Of a stretch of 45,176 nucleotides of DNA, positions 19,372 to 28,902 are shown in pieces. The notes below the pieces were generated by a model. That model worked only from the letters and a program-made list of their open reading frames with translations. It was not told the origin of the DNA and did not search any database. A program made the position numbers and the translations under genes. The DNA lies in sequence record NC_073324.1; one strand, written 5' to 3'. The DNA comes from Escherichia phage vB_EcoS-22664BS2. Each line of letters starts with the position of its first letter. Position 1 is the first letter of the stretch.

Positions 19372-19736
19372 ACGCGTTGCTCCAGTTTGCCCGTTGGAAC
19401 TTCATAACTCGCCACAAACGGCGGGAGTTTGACAGTATCTCCGACGGGCATAAAGCCGCGCTAATTGCTATGGGGGTTATGCAAGACGCGCCGGAAGCAA
19501 CGCAGGACACCGGGCCAGAATGCCCCCCTGAGCTATTAACCACCTTCGAGAAGTACAGGGAAATCAAATTCACCCGCCGAGTGGACGATGATGGCATCAA
19601 GATGTATCCGCGTGAACAGTTAAGATGGTCGGATTTAGTGGCATATAGCACCGTTTCAGGCCAGAATATAGGCATGTTTGAATCTGACATCATCATGAGC
19701 TTAGACGCTATTTTCGAGGGTAGAAACGATGGCTGA
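18955..19736 (+). other. predicted -1 frameshift fusion product of the tail chaperone (G-T-like)
   Basis: -1 frame is open from before the chaperone stop to 19736; candidate slip site AGGAAAAG at 19361-19368, just before TAG. Confidence 0.4.
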
Positions 19737-22068
19737 TGTAGCTAGTTTAGTTGTAAAAGTATCAGAGCAAGGCGCGAAAGCTACATCAGACCGTCTTGAT
19801 AACCTTTCCAAGTCTGCAAAGGTAGCCGGAGCTGCGGTAGCGGGCCTCGCTTCCATCGTCGCCGCTACCGCTTACAAGGCCGCACAGGAACTGGTAGAAT
19901 CCCAACGGCAACTGGACAAGATGTCCGCCAGCCTGAAAACACTAACCGGAAGCACGCAGGGTGCAAGACAGGCGTTAAGCATCCTGCAAGACTTCGCGCG
20001 CGACACTCCGTATGGCCTTGAACAGGCGGTAGAGGGATTCCGTAAACTTGTGGCGCTTGGTCTTACACCGTCAGAAGAAGCGTTGCGTTCCTACGGAAAC
20101 ACCGCCGCTGCTATGGGTAAAGACCTGAATCAGATGATTGAGGCGGTTGCAGACGCTAGTACTTTTGAATTTGAGCGCCTTAAAGAATTTGGTATCAAGG
20201 CCAAACAGAACAAAAACGATGTTGAATTTACATTCCAGGGTACTACTACGGTAGTTAAGAAGAGCGCTGCCGACATCGAGCAATACCTGCTCAACATCGG
20301 TAACGTAAACTTCGCGGGGGCTATGGCGGACCAGGCCAACACACTTAACGGGGCCATCGCCAGTGCCAGCGACTCATGGTCGCAGTTAAAAATGACACTG
20401 GCTACCAGTCTTGATGTTGGTGCGCTCGCCGAACCTATCCGATACATCGATGATTTAATCCAGGAACTTAACGCACAGGTTGCATCCGGTGAACTTGCCG
20501 CAGAGATGCGTATGTGGGGTGACATCGCGTCGGAAGTAGGAAGCGCAATAGAGATGTCATTCGACGCGGCATTTGGTTTCGTGGGTGATGCGATAAACGG
20601 GCTAAATGAGCTTTGGGATTTTAGTAGCAAAAGTATCACGGATAGCGGCGAACAAACGGCGACAACCATAGCGGAATCAGCCGCCGATGCGCTCGATTTC
20701 ATCGCGGAAGAATTTACCGCGATGGAGCGCTTCTTTGAGGATATGGTTAAAGGGGCGCAGGATGCCGGTCGGCTGGTTAAGGCCGCCTTCACACCAGGGG
20801 AATCCGTAGACGTAGCAAAAAATATTAACTTCCAGCTGGGGATGGCACTGGATACTCAGCGCGACGTTGCGGACCTGACACGTAAAAGTTTCCGCGAACA
20901 GGTGGAGGCTCAGCAAAATATCGTCGCGCTTAAACGCGCAGCGTATGACATCGACAAAGAAGCCGCTAAGGAAGAAGGGCTTAGTAAATTTAAGGTAACT
21001 GGTACCGGCGGCGGATCTGAAGATGATAGCGCGGGTGCAAAAGCCGCTAAGAAAGCAGCGGATGCGTTCGAGCGCCAGAAGAAAGCCGCGGAGGATTTCT
21101 ACTATCAGTCAATTCATCTCAATGATGACGTATTCCAGAAAATAGAAGCCAACCAGGAACAGCAGTTAACCAAGCTACAGGAGTTTTACGGCAATCAGCT
21201 TCTTAGCGACCAGCAGTACGAAAACGCCAAGACGCAGATTATGCTGGAAGCGGACACTGCTCGCCAGGAGGAACTCGCTAAACGAGAGAAAGAACGGCAG
21301 GAAAAGAACCAGAAAGGTGAAGACTTCATGGCTCAGATTATGGGTCAGAACGCCGCTGAGCTTGAGCTTCTCAACATTCAGGAACAGCAGAAACTGTCGG
21401 TAGCAGATAAGTACCGCGAGCAGGGTTTGATTAGTGAGAAGCAGTATCAGGCTGCGCTTAATGCCATCAACGAGCAGTACGCCACGAAGCGTGCCGACGC
21501 AACGGCAACGGCCTTCGGTAACATGGCCTCAAACATCGGTTCGGCTTTGGGCGAGGCTTCTGGCGCGTACAAGGCATTCGCTATCGTGCAGGCCACTATA
21601 GCCACGTACACCGCGGCTATTGAGGCGTATAAGTCAACAGCGGCTATCCCTGTAGTTGGCCCGTTCCTGGCTCCTGTAGCTGCCGCTGCTGCCGTTGGGG
21701 CGGGTATGGCGCAGATTTCCGCTATCAGGTCCGCACGTGAACAGGGCGGACAGTTATCCGCGGGGCAGGCTTCAACCATCGCCGAACGCGGTAAACCAGA
21801 AGTTATCATGCCCGCTGGTGCGTCACGTGTACGCACCGCACAGCAGATGAAAGAAATTATGGGGCAAAACGGGTCTTCTTCCGGACCGTCTAATGTTACT
21901 ATCGTAAACAACACGAGTTCTCAAATCGGCAACGTATCCACTGAGCAAGATGATGAAGGCCGTTTGCGTATCATCATCGAGGAGCAAGTGGCTGCCTCTT
22001 TGCAGAACAGTAACAGTAAGATTAGCAAGGCCCGCAAGGCCACAAGAAATGCGCCGGGGTTTAAATAA
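19729..22068 (+). CDS. tape measure protein
   Basis: 779 aa, Ala/Gln/Glu-rich coiled coil, follows chaperone pair. Confidence 0.85.
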   Translation: MADVASLVVKVSEQGAKATSDRLDNLSKSAKVAGAAVAGLASIVAATAYKAAQELVESQRQLDKMSASLKTLTGSTQGARQALSILQDFARDTPYGLEQAVEGFRKLVALGLTPSEEALRSYGNTAAAMGKDLNQMIEAVADASTFEFERLKEFGIKAKQNKNDVEFTFQGTTTVVKKSAADIEQYLLNIGNVNFAGAMADQANTLNGAIASASDSWSQLKMTLATSLDVGALAEPIRYIDDLIQELNAQVASGELAAEMRMWGDIASEVGSAIEMSFDAAFGFVGDAINGLNELWDFSSKSITDSGEQTATTIAESAADALDFIAEEFTAMERFFEDMVKGAQDAGRLVKAAFTPGESVDVAKNINFQLGMALDTQRDVADLTRKSFREQVEAQQNIVALKRAAYDIDKEAAKEEGLSKFKVTGTGGGSEDDSAGAKAAKKAADAFERQKKAAEDFYYQSIHLNDDVFQKIEANQEQQLTKLQEFYGNQLLSDQQYENAKTQIMLEADTARQEELAKREKERQEKNQKGEDFMAQIMGQNAAELELLNIQEQQKLSVADKYREQGLISEKQYQAALNAINEQYATKRADATATAFGNMASNIGSALGEASGAYKAFAIVQATIATYTAAIEAYKSTAAIPVVGPFLAPVAAAAAVGAGMAQISAIRSAREQGGQLSAGQASTIAERGKPEVIMPAGASRVRTAQQMKEIMGQNGSSSGPSNVTIVNNTSSQIGNVSTEQDDEGRLRIIIEEQVAASLQNSNSKISKARKATRNAPGFK

Positions 22069-23465
22069 TGAGCGACTTATATTTCCCACGTAGCCTTAAG
22101 CCGGTGGTATCGAAAGGCTACTCAATGACCAGACGCAACAACGTCTGGAGTGTAGATTTAGCCGGTGGCGGAGTGCGTCAAGGCCGTGACACGTATTATG
22201 ATGTGTTCCCAATAAGCGTAACCCTGATTACATCCGCAATGGGGCGGCAGGCGTTTCTGTCGTTCCTCGAGAAAGTCGATGGTGGCGCGTCAAGTTTCTG
22301 GATGGCGCACGACTTCGGCATGGGTATTGAGGATTATCAAGTCACCATTACATCCACCGTCGCCGAGTCCACTGAAGACGGGATTAACTGGACAATTACT
22401 TTCACGGCAACCGCTGAGAAATCACCGTTCCAGGACCTCGAGAACCAGTGTCTGATTAACAATCTGCCAGATTTGTATGGCTGTTATGGTGATTGCCTGG
22501 GCAGTTTCCTGAAAATATACGCGAACTATGAGACAACGTTCCCGCGCATCTGGAGCAATGAAGGGCCTGCCGGGTATCCACCGATTAACCTTCTGGCGTC
22601 GACTCTTGATAGCCGCATTGTGTATGGCGCGCCGCAGGTTTATTACATCAACCGCAACGGCAATCTTGTGCAGTCCGCCGCTAATGAATGGCCTCTTACG
22701 TTTATTGATGGGGTTGCTGTTGGACGTGTTCCGCCGGAATCCGCGTCCAGTAATATCCTGATTAAATCGTCGAAATTATCTGACGCATCGTGGGATAAAA
22801 CTAGAACAACAGTGTCGGATGCAGTTGACGGATTTCTAAACGGTGGTACGTTCTCGCTAGTCCCGAACCAGACAAACACCAGCCATCTCGTATATCAATC
22901 GGTGTCTTCCGCTTTTGCGGAGGGTGATGTATACACTCTCAGTTACGTTGCTAAGGCATATGGTTATAATTATGCGAGACTTCGCGCCGCTGATGATGCT
23001 GGGTTTATCGCGGATTGTGTTGCTAACTTATCGACAGGGGTTATTTACGCGGGCGCCCCCGGCAGCGATATAGCAGAGCTTGGCGATGGTTGGTATCGAT
23101 TTACAGAAACGGTAGCTATACGCCAGGGCGGCGCATCTTCTCTGCTTTTAGCGTCATGGGTGTACAACAACTCCGCCGTTGGTTCATTTGTCGGTGACGG
23201 GGTTAGTGGGATATTAGTGTGCGCGATGCAAATAGAAAAATCACCTTTTGCCACGTCGCCAATAGTAACCGAATCGTCACCGGTAACCCGAACGACGGCA
23301 TCGGCAAAAGTAGTAATGAACGGTGCAACAAGCATTGATATTACATATTCAGACGGCTCTGTGGTAAACGTTCCGTCTGTTGACGGTTACGCCGCCATCC
23401 CTCAAGCAGACTCTGCGTGGGGAAGCAAGTACATCACCCGTATTGATTTTAATGTGGACAGTTAA
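22068..23465 (+). CDS. distal tail protein with C-terminal extension (putative)
   Basis: First gene after tape measure; 465 aa. Confidence 0.5.
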   Translation: MSDLYFPRSLKPVVSKGYSMTRRNNVWSVDLAGGGVRQGRDTYYDVFPISVTLITSAMGRQAFLSFLEKVDGGASSFWMAHDFGMGIEDYQVTITSTVAESTEDGINWTITFTATAEKSPFQDLENQCLINNLPDLYGCYGDCLGSFLKIYANYETTFPRIWSNEGPAGYPPINLLASTLDSRIVYGAPQVYYINRNGNLVQSAANEWPLTFIDGVAVGRVPPESASSNILIKSSKLSDASWDKTRTTVSDAVDGFLNGGTFSLVPNQTNTSHLVYQSVSSAFAEGDVYTLSYVAKAYGYNYARLRAADDAGFIADCVANLSTGVIYAGAPGSDIAELGDGWYRFTETVAIRQGGASSLLLASWVYNNSAVGSFVGDGVSGILVCAMQIEKSPFATSPIVTESSPVTRTTASAKVVMNGATSIDITYSDGSVVNVPSVDGYAAIPQADSAWGSKYITRIDFNVDS

Positions 23466-23468
23466 CTT

Positions 23469-23984
23469 ATGAGCCAGGAATCAGTAGAAGCCGCCTATCG
23501 CCGTAAGCTGGCCTCCAACCCCGACGGCGAGATGGACTACATCACGTTGCAAATCAGCCACCCGTTGCTGTCTAAGACGTACTATCTTGTGCGCGGGTTA
23601 CAGGAACTCACGGCAACACTGGAGACAGGCGAAATTATCACGTTCGAGCCAACCCCGATGGAGGCGTCGGGGGCGGCTAACAACAGTGATATGGACCAGA
23701 CGACTACGTTTACTTTACCGGATATTCTCAATCAACTTGACGATGAGATGGATAAAATCCCTATGAGTAACACCGAGTTGCCGAAGTTCGTCTTCCGTCG
23801 TTACGTCAGCACAGACCTGTCTTATCCGGCTGACGGTCCTGTCATGTATGAGTTGCAGGCCATCAACCAGGAGAAGGGCGAGTTCTCCGCGGATGTTGGT
23901 ACACCTATGCTGAACCAGCGAAGCACTGGTATACTGATGACACCTAAAGAGATACCGTTATTACGCGGCCTGTTGACCACATGA
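23469..23984 (+). CDS. minor tail protein (lambda L-like position)
   Basis: Gene order in tail tip block. Confidence 0.45.
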   Translation: MSQESVEAAYRRKLASNPDGEMDYITLQISHPLLSKTYYLVRGLQELTATLETGEIITFEPTPMEASGAANNSDMDQTTTFTLPDILNQLDDEMDKIPMSNTELPKFVFRRYVSTDLSYPADGPVMYELQAINQEKGEFSADVGTPMLNQRSTGILMTPKEIPLLRGLLTT

Positions 23985-24346
23985 ATATTAACGACTACAC
24001 GGGCATACCTTACGACTTTCGCAAGCGCAATTGCTGGCATCACGTGCGCATTGTCCGCGCGGATGCCGGGTTAGAAACCCCTGCGTTCGACGTTACAAGC
24101 CCAACGGCAATTAACGAAGCGTTTGACGAAGGCCACCGTGACACGAAGGGGCTTACAAAAATTGATAAGCCTGAAAACTTCTGCGCGGTGCTTATGGGTT
24201 ATCGCCGCGGGGGTCGTATCGTGTGGCACGCTGGAGTTTACTTCGACGGGATGGTGAGTCATTGCGAGCTTGCATCCCGTCAGGTACGGCTTGACAGGCT
24301 GGTGGACCTCAGAGACACGTACACGGAGATTGAATTTTGGCGATAA
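23981..24346 (+). CDS. tail tip assembly protein, NlpC/P60-like (lambda K-like)
   Basis: Cys in RNCWHH and downstream His in WHAGVYFDGMVSH; gene order. Confidence 0.5.
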   Translation: MNINDYTGIPYDFRKRNCWHHVRIVRADAGLETPAFDVTSPTAINEAFDEGHRDTKGLTKIDKPENFCAVLMGYRRGGRIVWHAGVYFDGMVSHCELASRQVRLDRLVDLRDTYTEIEFWR

Positions 24347-26904
24347 TCCTGCACTACACGCGAAACGCTGAAGGCGCTTTCGACCGTACAAAACACGTCG
24401 GGATGCCGATGGAGTTTGTCGTTAACCGTATTCCCTACGGCGTGCCTGTGCGCGTCTATCTCGGTGAGATTGGCGATGATACAGATGTAACAGACGACTT
24501 CAATGCGCTCAAAGACGAGGACGCCGTGTACCACATTATCGAGGGTGCAGGCGGTGGTATCGGCGACGCTATCGGTAGTGTATTCAGTTTCATCCTTAAG
24601 CCAATTGCCAAATTGTTCGGGCTAAACACAGCAGCTAACGCTAATTATTCCGCTACCAACAATCAGGCTACGTCGCCTAACAACAGTCTTACTGACCGCT
24701 CGAACAAGCCACGTCCTTATGAACGTTCTTATGACATCTGCGGGACAGTGCAGACTATACCCAATGACCTGATGCAGACGTATAAGGTGTTTAACGCCAC
24801 GGGGGCGCTTATTGAATATGCGTACTATGACGCCGGTCGAGGGTATCTGCATATTGAGGAAGACGGTGTAACTGAGGCAGATACCCGAATCAGCGAGATA
24901 ACTGGCTCGTCGGTGACGGTGTATTCTCCTTACACTTCGCCGAATAACACCAGCACACCACAATTGCATATCGGCGACCCTATAGACCAGAAATTGTACG
25001 TTACATTTAAAAACGCCGATGTCGATGGCGCTGTTCTTCCCGCCCCTAATGATATCGCTATAGACGTGCAGGACTACACTGTCCAGCGGCAGGGAACAAC
25101 CGGCGTTGTAGTAGGCGATGACGCTGGTTTCGATGAGTTTTTGGCGGTCGGGGACCTGGCATACTTCGATAACGTATATGCAGATACAACCCCAGGGTCT
25201 TTGGGTAATGAGGTTAACCTGGACGGGAGGTACACGGTTCTTTCTGTTAGTGAAACGACCCTTATTGTGGACGTCAGTACAAATCAATCAATATGGAACC
25301 AGCTAGGAACATCTGTATGGTTTATAGGTGAAGAGGGCAACCATCTTATAGGCCCGGCGGATACTTACGCGGCTTCCCTCTCTGAATGGGCGTACATCAC
25401 CCGCGGAACCGTCGACCGTGTTGTAGCCAATGTGGCTGCCAGCAACGGCATGTACAAATACAACGGCGACTATAACCGCGCTTCAGTGACAGTCGAACTG
25501 CAATACCAGATGGTAGATGAATTGAAACAGCCTGTAGGTGACATATTTACCGTACGAGGAACCGTAACAGGCCGGAACACGGATTACACAGGGATTACTC
25601 TTTACGGAAGTTTACCAACTGCTTCCAGATTCCGCGCCCGTATGCGTCGTGTTTCGGACACCGATAAAGATTTTGAAGGTACTGTTAGCGACGAGGTTAC
25701 TTTCACTAATCTGTATGGGCAGTCGCTGGACACGACCCCCCACTACGGCAACCGTACTACCGTACACTGCGCCCGTAAACAAACCCCACGTGCAGCCGAG
25801 GTGTCCGAACCGGAACTGCGCATGATTGCAACCGAGATGTGCTACAAATACTTAGGTAACGGCGTATTCGATACGGTAATGACACCGAACACTCAGGCCG
25901 TGCAGTCGCTAATCAGGCTGGCGCGTGACCCTGTGGTGGGTAATCTGGAACTGACAACGGCAAATATGGACAAGTTACTTGCCGTGCAGGAAGAAATTGA
26001 GTCGTATTTTGACAGTGAATTAGCCGGGCAGTTCTGCTACACATTCGACGACTACGACACAACCATGCAAGACATCGTTCAGACCATCGCGGAAGCCGTG
26101 TTTTGTACGGCATACCGTAAAGGTGCTGATATTATGCTGCGATTCGACCGTCCTGTTGCGGGGCCTGAGATGGTTTTCACCCACCGCAGCAAAACGACCG
26201 GTACGGAGAAATGGACGCGCACGTTCAACGATTCGACAACCTACGATAGCCTGTCGTTCTCGTACATTGACCCGGATACAAACGTACAGGAGACGATTTA
26301 TATCCCGGAAGAACTCGGCGCGAACACCGAGGAGTACGAATCGAAGGGTGTACGTAACTATCAGCAAGCGTACTGGCTGGCGTGGCGTCGCTACCAGCGC
26401 AACACGTTAAGTAAAGTTGTCGTAGAGTTCGAAGCTACCGAAGAAGGCGCTCTCGCTACTCCCGGCGGCGTAATCAGTGTGGTTAAAGGCTCGCGTATCG
26501 CGCCGCAGGATGGTTATGTTGTTGCCGTCAATGGCCTTACGCTGACGCTGTCTCAGCCTGTTACGTTTACTCCTGGTGATGACCATTCCATCATTCTTAA
26601 GAAGCGCGACGGCTCTGTGCAGAGTATTTCTGTTATCAAAGGAAGCCACGACCGCGAAGTGATTATGCTCTCCGCGCCGGAGGAGGCAATCTACACGGGG
26701 AATAGTGCGCTAAAAACTGAGTTTTCATTCGGCAACGAAGCAAGGCATAATGCTCAGAAGATAGTTGTTTCTTCAATCGACCCCGGCGACGACCGCACGG
26801 TCAAGATTACGGGCTACAACTATGATGACGGATTCTATAAATACGACGGCGTCGCGCCATACGGCAGCGGTTTCTCCGACGGATTCAGCAATGGTTTTAA
26901 TTAA
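24337..26904 (+). CDS. tail tip / central fibre protein (lambda J-like; N-terminus resembles lambda I)
   Basis: 855 aa, TTG start overlapping upstream gene; Gly-rich hydrophobic N-terminal segment. Confidence 0.6.
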   Translation: MAIILHYTRNAEGAFDRTKHVGMPMEFVVNRIPYGVPVRVYLGEIGDDTDVTDDFNALKDEDAVYHIIEGAGGGIGDAIGSVFSFILKPIAKLFGLNTAANANYSATNNQATSPNNSLTDRSNKPRPYERSYDICGTVQTIPNDLMQTYKVFNATGALIEYAYYDAGRGYLHIEEDGVTEADTRISEITGSSVTVYSPYTSPNNTSTPQLHIGDPIDQKLYVTFKNADVDGAVLPAPNDIAIDVQDYTVQRQGTTGVVVGDDAGFDEFLAVGDLAYFDNVYADTTPGSLGNEVNLDGRYTVLSVSETTLIVDVSTNQSIWNQLGTSVWFIGEEGNHLIGPADTYAASLSEWAYITRGTVDRVVANVAASNGMYKYNGDYNRASVTVELQYQMVDELKQPVGDIFTVRGTVTGRNTDYTGITLYGSLPTASRFRARMRRVSDTDKDFEGTVSDEVTFTNLYGQSLDTTPHYGNRTTVHCARKQTPRAAEVSEPELRMIATEMCYKYLGNGVFDTVMTPNTQAVQSLIRLARDPVVGNLELTTANMDKLLAVQEEIESYFDSELAGQFCYTFDDYDTTMQDIVQTIAEAVFCTAYRKGADIMLRFDRPVAGPEMVFTHRSKTTGTEKWTRTFNDSTTYDSLSFSYIDPDTNVQETIYIPEELGANTEEYESKGVRNYQQAYWLAWRRYQRNTLSKVVVEFEATEEGALATPGGVISVVKGSRIAPQDGYVVAVNGLTLTLSQPVTFTPGDDHSIILKKRDGSVQSISVIKGSHDREVIMLSAPEEAIYTGNSALKTEFSFGNEARHNAQKIVVSSIDPGDDRTVKITGYNYDDGFYKYDGVAPYGSGFSDGFSNGFN

Positions 26905-26916
26905 AGAGGACTCTAT

Positions 26917-28902
26917 ATGTCAAGCGGATGCGGTGACGTTTTAAGCCTGGCGGATTTACAAACCGTCAAGAAACACCAAATTTTTGAAGCCGAGGTTATC
27001 ACCGGTAAATCCGGCGGGGTTGCTGGTGGCGCCGATATTGATTACGCGACCAACCCTGTTACCGGGCAGACCCAGAAGACGCTTCCTGCTGTGTTGCGTG
27101 ATGCCGGTTTTTCTCCCGTATCGTGGGACTTTTCCACCGGCGGTACGTTAACAGTTAATGGCCGCGACAAAGTGGTGTATGACCCCGTAAGCAAGACGTG
27201 GTACTCATATGCGGGTACGTTGCCGGTTGTTGTTCCCGCGAGTTTTAATCCAGTCGGTAACGCTAACTGGAAGCCGCAGACAGACCCAAATTTGCGTAAT
27301 GATTTGGCGTCAAGTACCGCCGGTTTAGGGGCTTCACTGGTGTCTTTTTCCAACGGTAACACCGTTGAAACATTATCTGACGCGGAAGGTGCCAAGAACA
27401 TAGGCAGTGGCGAAAGGAGTTTGCTTGCACGTAACAATGATATTAAGCATTCTGGCGACTTTTCTACCCTTCAAGCCGCGGTAGATGCGTCGTTAACTAA
27501 AAACGACTTAATTGTTTCTCCGGGTGAGTATACAGAAGCAATCACTCTGGGTAGTAAGCAGATAAAAGGTGTAGGTGGTGCTGCAATATTAAAACCATCG
27601 GCAAACTATGCAAATACTGTACAGGTTAATTTATCCACCCCGCACTGGCAGTTTCGACACAGCGGTGGTTTTGCCGTAGATGGTACAGGTACAACTGGGG
27701 CCGTAGGTATTAGTTTTGACCCGTCAGACCAATATTCCGGACGTCATAATTTTAGTGATTTATACATCCACAACATCAACAAGGCCATTCAGAAGCCTTC
27801 CGGGAACATCGGTAATACATGGAGAAATATTGGGGTATCTACGTGTGATTGGGGGTATTACGCGATTAGTGGCTCAGAGATGCATTGCGGGGCCGATACC
27901 CTCTACAATATCCACTTCGACGGCATCTCCACCTATGCCGTCTACCTAAACGGCACTGTCGATAACGGCGGGATAGGCGGATGGTGGCTTAAAGACTCCA
28001 TTATTGAGGCTTCCGGAGGCGGCGGGATATATTTAAAAAGCAAATCAGGTGACTGCCCTACATCTCCATGCGGGGTATCCAATGTATGGACGGAAGCGAT
28101 TGCAACATCATCGGCTGTTCAGGTAGACGGCGTGGCGCAAAAACCGCGAGTTCTCAAGTTGGTAGACACCGCGATATTCTTTGCTGAGTATTCTTATCTC
28201 AACAACATCGAGCTATCCAACTCCAACTTAGTAACTTATGGTTGCCGTTTTGACAACGCCGATGGTAATCAGGATATTGTAGTGGATGCACAAAGCACCA
28301 TCGTAGCCCACGACGTGTATTTAAACGGCAGCTCTGGAAAGGACGTTATTGTAGAGTCTGTCGCGTCGCAATCCGCAACGATAGCCACTACAAACTTGTC
28401 TCTACGAGGAAATTTAACAAGGGGACGAGTGTTTAATACGCCTACGGGGAATAAGTTAAAAGCTATCACATTTGACTCAGGTAGCCATAATTTTTCTGGT
28501 AGCGGTACCGTTAACGGTTCGACTGTATCTGACGGACTTCACGCCGCTACATGTACCGAATTTTCATTCCCTGGGTCCGGTTTATATGAAATGGTAGCGT
28601 CAAGAACGACACTTACATCCGGTAGATGGTACGTGTGGGGCGTCAACTCTCGCCTCCAATCAGGAACAGCAGATGTGAGTATAACGTCAGGTATTACTAT
28701 GGGTAGCGTTTATACTAAGTCTGGTGAGTGGATTAGCACATTTGGGGTGGGTAAAGCTTCCGCTAACGGTACTGTAGGTCTGTACGTCTCTACTGGGGGA
28801 GGTTCAGGTGCTGTTATCAGATTTAGTGACTTCTTCATCGCTGAGTTTACGACGCAGGCTCAGGCTTTAGCTTTCGCTAACTCCCGAATGTCGTTGGCTT
28901 AA
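26917..28902 (+). CDS. tailspike / tail fibre receptor-binding protein
   Basis: 661 aa; N-terminal anchor-like domain then Gly/Asn/Ser/Thr-rich repeats suggesting a beta-helix; last tail gene. Confidence 0.6.
   Translation: MSSGCGDVLSLADLQTVKKHQIFEAEVITGKSGGVAGGADIDYATNPVTGQTQKTLPAVLRDAGFSPVSWDFSTGGTLTVNGRDKVVYDPVSKTWYSYAGTLPVVVPASFNPVGNANWKPQTDPNLRNDLASSTAGLGASLVSFSNGNTVETLSDAEGAKNIGSGERSLLARNNDIKHSGDFSTLQAAVDASLTKNDLIVSPGEYTEAITLGSKQIKGVGGAAILKPSANYANTVQVNLSTPHWQFRHSGGFAVDGTGTTGAVGISFDPSDQYSGRHNFSDLYIHNINKAIQKPSGNIGNTWRNIGVSTCDWGYYAISGSEMHCGADTLYNIHFDGISTYAVYLNGTVDNGGIGGWWLKDSIIEASGGGGIYLKSKSGDCPTSPCGVSNVWTEAIATSSAVQVDGVAQKPRVLKLVDTAIFFAEYSYLNNIELSNSNLVTYGCRFDNADGNQDIVVDAQSTIVAHDVYLNGSSGKDVIVESVASQSATIATTNLSLRGNLTRGRVFNTPTGNKLKAITFDSGSHNFSGSGTVNGSTVSDGLHAATCTEFSFPGSGLYEMVASRTTLTSGRWYVWGVNSRLQSGTADVSITSGITMGSVYTKSGEWISTFGVGKASANGTVGLYVSTGGGSGAVIRFSDFFIAEFTTQAQALAFANSRMSLA

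Follow-up and report, generated by a model that had tools for sequence, protein, structure and literature searches.

The tail tip of phage lambda contains gpI (TAPI), which consists of a beta-grasp domain related to ThiS/MoaD, with a conserved glycine at its end, a Gly-rich linker and a C-terminal domain (Iyer, Burroughs and Aravind 2006, PMC1779556). After the ubiquitin-like (Ubl) domain comes a Gly-rich hydrophobic segment with two predicted membrane helices, H1 and H2 (PMC11101478). Three copies of gpI stand as a tripod in the lumen of the closed tip, where they support the tape measure protein gpH at its C-terminal coiled coil and plug the tube. When the tip opens, gpI drops towards the outer membrane, and its hydrophobic helices have been proposed to insert there. 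The C-terminal TAPI-C domain of gpI supplies the plug and strands that augment the gpJ sheets, and the N-terminal domain has never been resolved. That hub domains are redistributed over one to three polypeptides is well established: gpL and gpI, plus the N-terminal part of gpJ, together correspond to pb3 of phage T5, and TAPI is fused to TAPJ in some prophages, with NlpC-only K proteins that have no JAB domain (Iyer et al. 2006, PMC1779556). The T1 structure paper does not discuss a gpI homologue. Here we describe the tail hub gene (24337..26904, + strand) of Escherichia phage vB_EcoS-22664BS2, a Kagunavirus-type (Guernseyvirinae) E. coli siphophage whose genome sequence (NC_073324.1, 45,176 nucleotides, hereafter the window) was analyzed at full length. 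Its 855-residue product probably joins in one polypeptide what lambda divides between gpI and the hub part of gpJ, with an N-terminus homologous to gpI.

The body of the protein is a TipJ/gpJ-type hub. Residues 359-835 (25411..26841, + strand) match NF040662 with 391.9 bits (cutoff 140), and the whole gene matches the tail protein family phrog_469 with E = 1e-247; the matches to PF24801 (FNIII-A_GpJ) and PF13550 (Phage-tail_3) are weak and lie below their thresholds. Together with the similarity to a solved hub chain of phage Sf11 (see below), these matches confirm the J-like body that had been named in the first-pass annotation. The mean predicted local distance difference test (pLDDT) of a full-length AlphaFold2 (AF2) model was 55, not good enough to search with the fold of the body. 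The TipJ-type core is common to this protein and lambda gpJ. Unlike gpJ, which carries a central fibre of ~330 residues and a receptor-binding domain, the hub protein stops 20 residues past the TipJ-related region, and therefore has no central fibre or receptor-binding domain of the lambda J type. The homologue in Salmonella phage Jersey has likewise been reported to be without a central fibre (Jersey paper, 2026). Receptor binding would thus be the task of the tailspike encoded downstream, a role described for Kagunavirus and Sf11; the hubs of both Sf11 and Jersey are devoid of a central fibre, and their tailspikes attach via the distal tail protein.

The first ~100 residues most likely replace the separate gpI of lambda. 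In two AF2 runs that agree with each other, residues 1-70 (24337..24546, + strand) follow the order strand-strand-helix-strand-short helix-strand with a pLDDT of ~70-80, and are predicted to form a ThiS/MoaD-like ubiquitin-type beta-grasp, the fold expected of the gpI N-terminal domain. The C-terminal end of this domain is a glycine hinge, GAGGG (residues 71-75, 24547..24561, + strand), in which G72 and G74 are invariant and G73 is nearly so among the closer relatives aligned; in the wider alignment G74 is only nearly invariant, and HD01-type members have PGA or PAD at the hinge. It is followed by an amphipathic or hydrophobic helix, IGDAIGSVFSFILKPIAKLFGL (residues 76-98, 24562..24630, + strand; modelled by AF2 at residues 79-94 with low confidence), and by a low-complexity linker rich in Asn, Ala and Thr (residues 99-112, 24631..24672, + strand; pLDDT <50), which is variable and gapped in the alignments. 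The stretch quoted in the first-pass annotation for its likeness to lambda gpI, VYHIIEGAGGGIGDAIGSVFSFIL, comprises residues 65-88. The most conserved motif of the family, SPNNSLTDRSNKPRPYERSYDICGTVQTIP (residues 113-142, 24673..24762, + strand), lies at the entry to the hub body. Its residues 113-136 read SPNNSLTDRxNKPRPxxRxxDxCG, the columns N115, N116, L118, R121, N123, R126, P127, R130, D133 and G136 are invariant, and the pattern of the 113-142 motif retrieved 66 IMG/VR loci. The SPNNSLTDR motif could correspond to the C-terminus of gpI or to the N-terminus of J.

The location of the module also agrees with that of gpI, which is encoded between K and the J body. Here the J-type gene begins with the module, in the I/J place directly 3' of the K-position gene. 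No I-like open reading frame (ORF) separate from the hub gene was found in the six frames of the window, nor is there a separate I gene in the distant relatives Salmonella phage Sasha and Acinetobacter phage HD01, in which a tape measure gene, an M-position gene, an L-like gene, a short K-position gene and a long hub gene follow one another. We infer homology with gpI, rather than analogy, because the Ubl domain, glycine hinge and hydrophobic helix follow one another at the tip in the order known from gpI, because a separate I gene is missing from the window, Sasha and HD01, and because TAPI-TAPJ fusions offer a precedent (PMC1779556). As in those fusions, a Ubl TAPI module here stands N-terminal to J in one polypeptide, with a K partner that has no JAB domain. 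The examples of Iyer et al. differ in that they have a recognizable TAPI and come from prophages, whereas the Ubl domain here is too diverged for Pfam and belongs to lytic phages of the Guernseyvirinae type. T5 pb3 is a further known case of hub domains split differently among polypeptides, though pb3 also holds the gpL-equivalent domain and its plug is an internal insertion.

A remote similarity between the module and gpI was detected by profile-profile comparison. A family profile of 20, later 38, non-redundant N-termini was compared with a gpI profile of 16 sequences from lambda, T1-like, HK97-like, Burkholderia, Ralstonia, Vibrio, Pseudomonas and other phages. With the 20-sequence profile, hhalign placed residues 24-79 co-linear with gpI residues 52-104 (probability 54-69%, P = 5e-5 to 1.3e-4). 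The paired region takes in the final strands of the ubiquitin-like domain of gpI together with the Gly hinge: the hinge GAGGG is aligned with GAKSGG of gpI, and AVYHIIEGAGGG pairs with gpI AVIHIVPRVAGAKSGG, the same stretch that the first-pass annotation had flagged. The score was 33.9, compared with 10.6 ± 2.0 (maximum 18.2) for column shuffles, 14.0 ± 2.0 (maximum 21.7) for shuffles of 8-column blocks and 10-11 for reversed profiles; none of the 300 shuffled profiles and neither of the two reversed profiles reached 33.9. With the 38-sequence profile, the global alignment is co-linear over the whole module (P = 2.3e-5), and P values across comparisons ranged from 2e-5 to 5e-4. The resemblance to gpI is modest and appears to exceed chance by one measure only, the profile-profile comparison.

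Several results weigh against homology with gpI. BLASTP found no similarity between the protein and lambda gpI. The Pfam profile PF06805 (Lambda_tail_I), which covers gpI residues 14-97 and gives lambda gpI itself 100 bits, had no match at E up to 10 in residues 1-100, residues 1-200 or the whole protein, and none at the same limit in 10 diverse family members. HMMER profile-to-sequence scores were 2-7 bits, and a gpI hidden Markov model run over the ORFs of the window did not pick out the hub ORF. An exhaustive phmmer search with residues 1-135 against 1.84 billion representatives matched 15 of them, none a gpI, all being family members or spurious HEAT-repeat proteins. Even the hhalign probability falls, to 31% for the local alignment with the broader 38-sequence profile, and over its whole range (31-69%) it stays below 70%. 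In local comparison, residues 95-185 resemble neither the C-terminal domain of gpI nor the N-termini of J proteins (P = 0.4-0.6; 0.57 for the gpI C-terminal profile, opposite which SPNNSLTDR is set by the global alignment only), and the plug and strand domain at the gpI C-terminus has no detectable local counterpart here. Whereas gpI has two helices after its Ubl domain, with Kyte-Doolittle 19-residue maxima of 1.8-2.05, this phage has one, which is amphipathic, with a maximum of 1.54, and does not clearly span a membrane. Foldseek searches against BFVD and PDB returned only family members and weak ubiquitin-like matches that are individually non-significant, and no gpI model was among the BFVD matches. 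The beta-grasp is moreover a very common fold, and likeness in fold alone does not prove common descent with gpI.

Pfam, NCBIfam and PHROGs assigned the N-terminal fragment to no named family apart from phage-family PHROGs, and a word-indexed homologue search with residues 1-160 produced 7 matches, all fragments of the same family. The HEAT-repeat matches of phmmer come from LGEIGDDTDVTDDFNALKDEDA (residues 34-80, 24436-24576), which matches designed alphaRep/HEAT-repeat proteins in the PDB with E down to 2e-5. They are considered spurious because their scores are summed over many repeats and because the region is predicted to be a strand-loop-helix-strand of the beta-grasp. The candidates P0256 and P0260 were rejected as relatives, as their multi-stretch matches are to a repeat of the IGD...ALKDEDA type.

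Alternatively, the N-terminal module would be a lineage-specific addition unrelated to gpI, a beta-grasp on a tether outside the hub (e.g., an appendage touching the cell surface), and its resemblance to gpI would reflect a common fold and a low-complexity stretch of glycine and hydrophobic residues. In favor of this reading, every curated and sequence-level search for gpI was negative, hhalign gives a probability of only 31-69%, no counterpart of the gpI C-terminal domain is detectable, and a 2026 structural-modelling study of Jersey called the N-terminal domain of gp32, the homologue there, novel and unplaced, proposing a position under or beside the hub. Against this, the hhalign score is far above its shuffled and reversed controls, and the match falls where it should and in the expected order; the module occupies the very site from which gene I is absent; its parts follow the gpI order; TAPI-TAPJ fusions with JAB-less K partners are documented; and residues from 81 onward of the Sf11 homologue are ordered within the tip model. 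We consider an unrelated addition somewhat unlikely, though it deserves to be kept in mind. The profile search for I-type similarity, which the first-pass annotation had set as the test of its lambda-I-like N-terminus, gave a divided answer: Pfam and HMMER did not recognize the resemblance, even in ten relatives, and a modest signal came from the profile-profile comparison only.

If the module is the counterpart of gpI, a location in the tip lumen may be proposed for it by analogy with lambda. Within the cone of the closed tip, the three N-terminal helices (residues 76-98) would lie beneath the tape measure protein's C-terminal helices and contribute to keeping the tube closed. Opening of the hub at the cell surface would free these helices to touch or enter the outer membrane before the DNA and the tape measure protein. 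The beta-grasp, which is resolved neither in the Sf11 homologue nor in lambda, would be a flexible domain, lumenal or for assembly, and the covalent link to the hub would stand in for the C-terminal strands that clamp gpI to gpJ in lambda, where gpI is a separate protein. Two findings agree with the lumenal location: Sf11 gp14 is ordered from residue 81 and not before, and an AlphaFold multimer prediction placed the N-terminal tether of the Jersey homologue as a coiled coil in the hub lumen (Jersey paper, 2026). The authors of that study dismissed this placement, the lumen being taken up by the tape measure protein; in lambda, however, both gpI and that protein are found there together.

The helix after the hinge varies among close relatives. 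The P0043 homologue, 77% identical overall, has the fully hydrophobic, transmembrane-like ALIVGALVALVVVAATVLL in place of the amphipathic ILKPIAKLF-type helix of this phage, and the helix appears to be a swap hot-spot; P0250, P0257-P0261 and L004 (HD01) may be compared. The Kyte-Doolittle maximum is 2.4-3.0 in P0043, P0250, P0258, P0259, P0261 and HD01, and 1.97 in P0257. Both the amphipathic and the hydrophobic helix types recur in distant lineages.

The K-position gene (23981..24346, + strand; phrog_329 minor tail protein, E = 2e-11) encodes one small domain of 121 residues, compared with 199 residues for lambda K, which has JAB and NlpC/P60 domains. The protein is therefore too short for a JAB domain, which is a difference from the K partner of lambda gpI. 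It has a Cys18/His83 NlpC/P60-like motif, and its BLASTP alignment with the region of the NlpC catalytic Cys in lambda K (E = 0.24) is a motif-level match only; no Pfam or NCBIfam family was matched. A putative NlpC/P60 fold is accordingly assigned at motif level, from the Cys/His motif and this alignment. Homologues of the K-position protein are called “peptidoglycan endopeptidase” in several GenBank records despite the absence of a Pfam or NCBIfam match. In a number of E. coli prophage gene calls (P0136, P0140, P0141, P0144 and others), NlpC/P60 (PF00877) and Lambda_tail_I (PF06805) are joined in products of 335-390 aa. K-I fusions were mentioned by Iyer et al. (2006, PMC1779556), and these joined calls could be real or could be artefacts of a K/I overlap of ~100 nt such as that seen in lambda.

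Cleavage of the Ubl domain by JAB is a long-standing prediction for lambda K and I. A bolder version of the gpI hypothesis would hold that the “novel” N-terminal domain of the Guernseyvirinae hub (Jersey gp32) is the missing gpI itself, a permanently tethered Ubl domain with a plug or membrane helix in the tip lumen, which, with the JAB peptidase gone from the K partner, would never be clipped off. We regard this version as doubtful, and it is offered here as speculation.

The extent of the N-terminal domain depends on the start codon. TTG at 24337-24339 is the first possible start of the hub gene, as an in-frame TGA lies just upstream at 24331-24333. A ribosome-binding site, GGAGA (24325-24329), is located 7 nt 5' of it, and both elements (24325..24339, + strand) fall within the 3' end of the upstream 121-aa ORF, which stops with TAA at 24344-24346 and overlaps the hub gene by 10 nt. 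Phage Bas70 shares the bases of both elements, and its GenBank annotation has the same gene model. The next in-frame starts are ATG at codons 23 and 25, and numerous database gene calls of 824-832 aa begin 24 codons later, at the ATG of codon 25 (omitting 24337-24408 of the window). Residues 1-22 are conserved at the protein level in homologues that are only 45-60% identical, with M1, A2, H6, R9 and G13 invariant or nearly so, and constitute the first two strands of the predicted domain. Because these residues are conserved as protein and form two predicted strands, TTG is the correct start, and the late gene calls cut off part of the N-terminal domain in many relatives. Translation from Met23 or Met25, which would leave no complete beta-grasp, agrees with the many shorter calls in close relatives and with the rarity of TTG relative to ATG as a start codon; it is very improbable given the conservation of both strands down to 45% identity, the absence of a GGAGA-type box before either ATG, and the coupling of translation with the overlapping upstream gene, which suits TTG. 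The 855-residue ORF, its TTG start and its overlap with the K-like gene were thus all described correctly in the first-pass annotation.

That annotation had left a choice between a natural fusion and a merged gene pair. The region 24337-26904 is one genuine gene encoding one natural polypeptide. With residues 1-160, which span the supposed I/J junction, tblastn recovered a single in-frame piece that covers 80% or more of the query in 496 of 523 phage records, whose hosts include Salmonella, Escherichia, Klebsiella, Serratia, Enterobacter and Acinetobacter and among which Kagunavirus and Jerseyvirus are found. An ORF of at least 780 aa was kept in 54 of the 56 IMG/VR loci with enough DNA. One exception starts mid-gene at a contig end. 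The other, L028 (IMGVR_UViG_641201315_000001, 42,572 bp; locus from 2501 onward), has a +1 frameshift near residue 262 that leaves pieces of 273 and 630 aa; this split could be a sequencing error or a real mutation. Sf11 gp14 (9occ_E, 828 aa) is similar over residues 32-836, Gly-rich helix included (E = 4.9e-26), was found in virions by mass spectrometry, and is modelled as one chain, residues 81-827 (PDB 9OCC); the supplementary file of the Sf11 paper gives no peptide coverage for gp14. Sf11 gp14 and Jersey gp32 have the same full-length architecture with a Gly-rich helix, and the gene order is the same in both phages. That an I-like and a J-like gene were merged artificially, by a sequencing frameshift or a stop read-through, can be dismissed as hardly credible: the family phrog_31307 covers only residues 1-246, short fragments exist in databases and one contig (L028) is split, but hundreds of phages and metagenomic contigs of several genera, sequenced independently, carry the same uninterrupted ORF, the L028 frameshift lies inside the hub body, far from the I/J junction, and the Sf11 homologue is a single chain in the cryo-EM model.

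Two cases of apparent splitting or fusion were considered and rejected. The “tail protein” family phrog_31307, 276 residues long, was not accepted as a sign of naturally split genes, since the lone split contig found is a frameshift inside the body; a split of the L028 type is probably the source of this family and of the short database fragments. Burkholderia phage phiBtTUL1a (L007, OR360541.1 29209-30393) appeared as an annotated I-J fusion and proved to be a misannotation: “host specificity protein J” is annotated from inside an intact 194-aa gpI-type ORF, with two small hypothetical genes over its 5' part. In the frames of this record, gpI is a normal gene of its own, and J comes after it in a different frame.

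The region 23400-27000 is 95-98% identical to Escherichia phages vB_EcoM_SHAK7858 and Bas70-76, and the tail-tip module lies on the + strand in the lambda order of tape measure, distal tail protein, gpL-like, K-position, hub and tailspike genes. The tape measure protein (19729..22068, + strand, 779 aa) matches phrog_1538 (E = 5e-204) and PF20155. The distal tail protein (22068..23465, + strand, 465 aa) matches Sf11 gp17 (9occ_C, E = 2e-106) and has a C-terminal fibre-type domain. This domain resembles the head spike fibre that is part of the Rhodobacter gene transfer agent (NF048003, 6tb9), and is of almost the same type as residues 153-457 of Sf11 gp17. A tailspike-docking helix has been modelled within gp17 residues 3-165, and the C-terminal part of gp17 is without a model. 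The gpL-like hub 1 protein (23469..23984, + strand, 171 aa) contains DUF1833 (PF08875, E = 7e-17; phrog_396), and Jersey gp30 has been reported as a gpL homologue (Jersey paper, 2026). After the K-position gene comes the hub gene, encoding the gpJ/TipJ-type “baseplate hub 2” protein with its putative gpI-like module, and directly 3' of it lies a gene for a tailspike or tail fibre (26917..28902, + strand, 661 aa; phrog_27367 and a weak match to PF18668). The role of the latter as the separate receptor-binding protein is assigned on the basis of the BASEL paper on Kagunavirus tailspikes.

The fusion described here is not a new kind of system, as both the redistribution of hub domains and I-J fusions are already documented, and the link to gpI amounts to a small, useful re-annotation. 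It suggests a likely role for a conserved, unannotated module of 100 residues in the hub of a very large group of phages of Salmonella, E. coli and Shigella (Guernseyvirinae and relatives), for which databases give the hub protein just the label “tail protein” and for which the 2026 structural-modelling paper left the module unexplained. A gpI-like module would explain the seeming absence of gene I from these phages, and indicates where it might be sought in existing cryo-EM maps, in the tip lumen under the tape measure protein's C-terminus. Should the bolder version with a permanently tethered, uncut gpI prove true, these phages would provide a natural test of whether removal of the Ubl domain matters for tail assembly or DNA ejection, and the alternation of an amphipathic with a fully hydrophobic helix among close relatives would represent two ways to breach the outer membrane.

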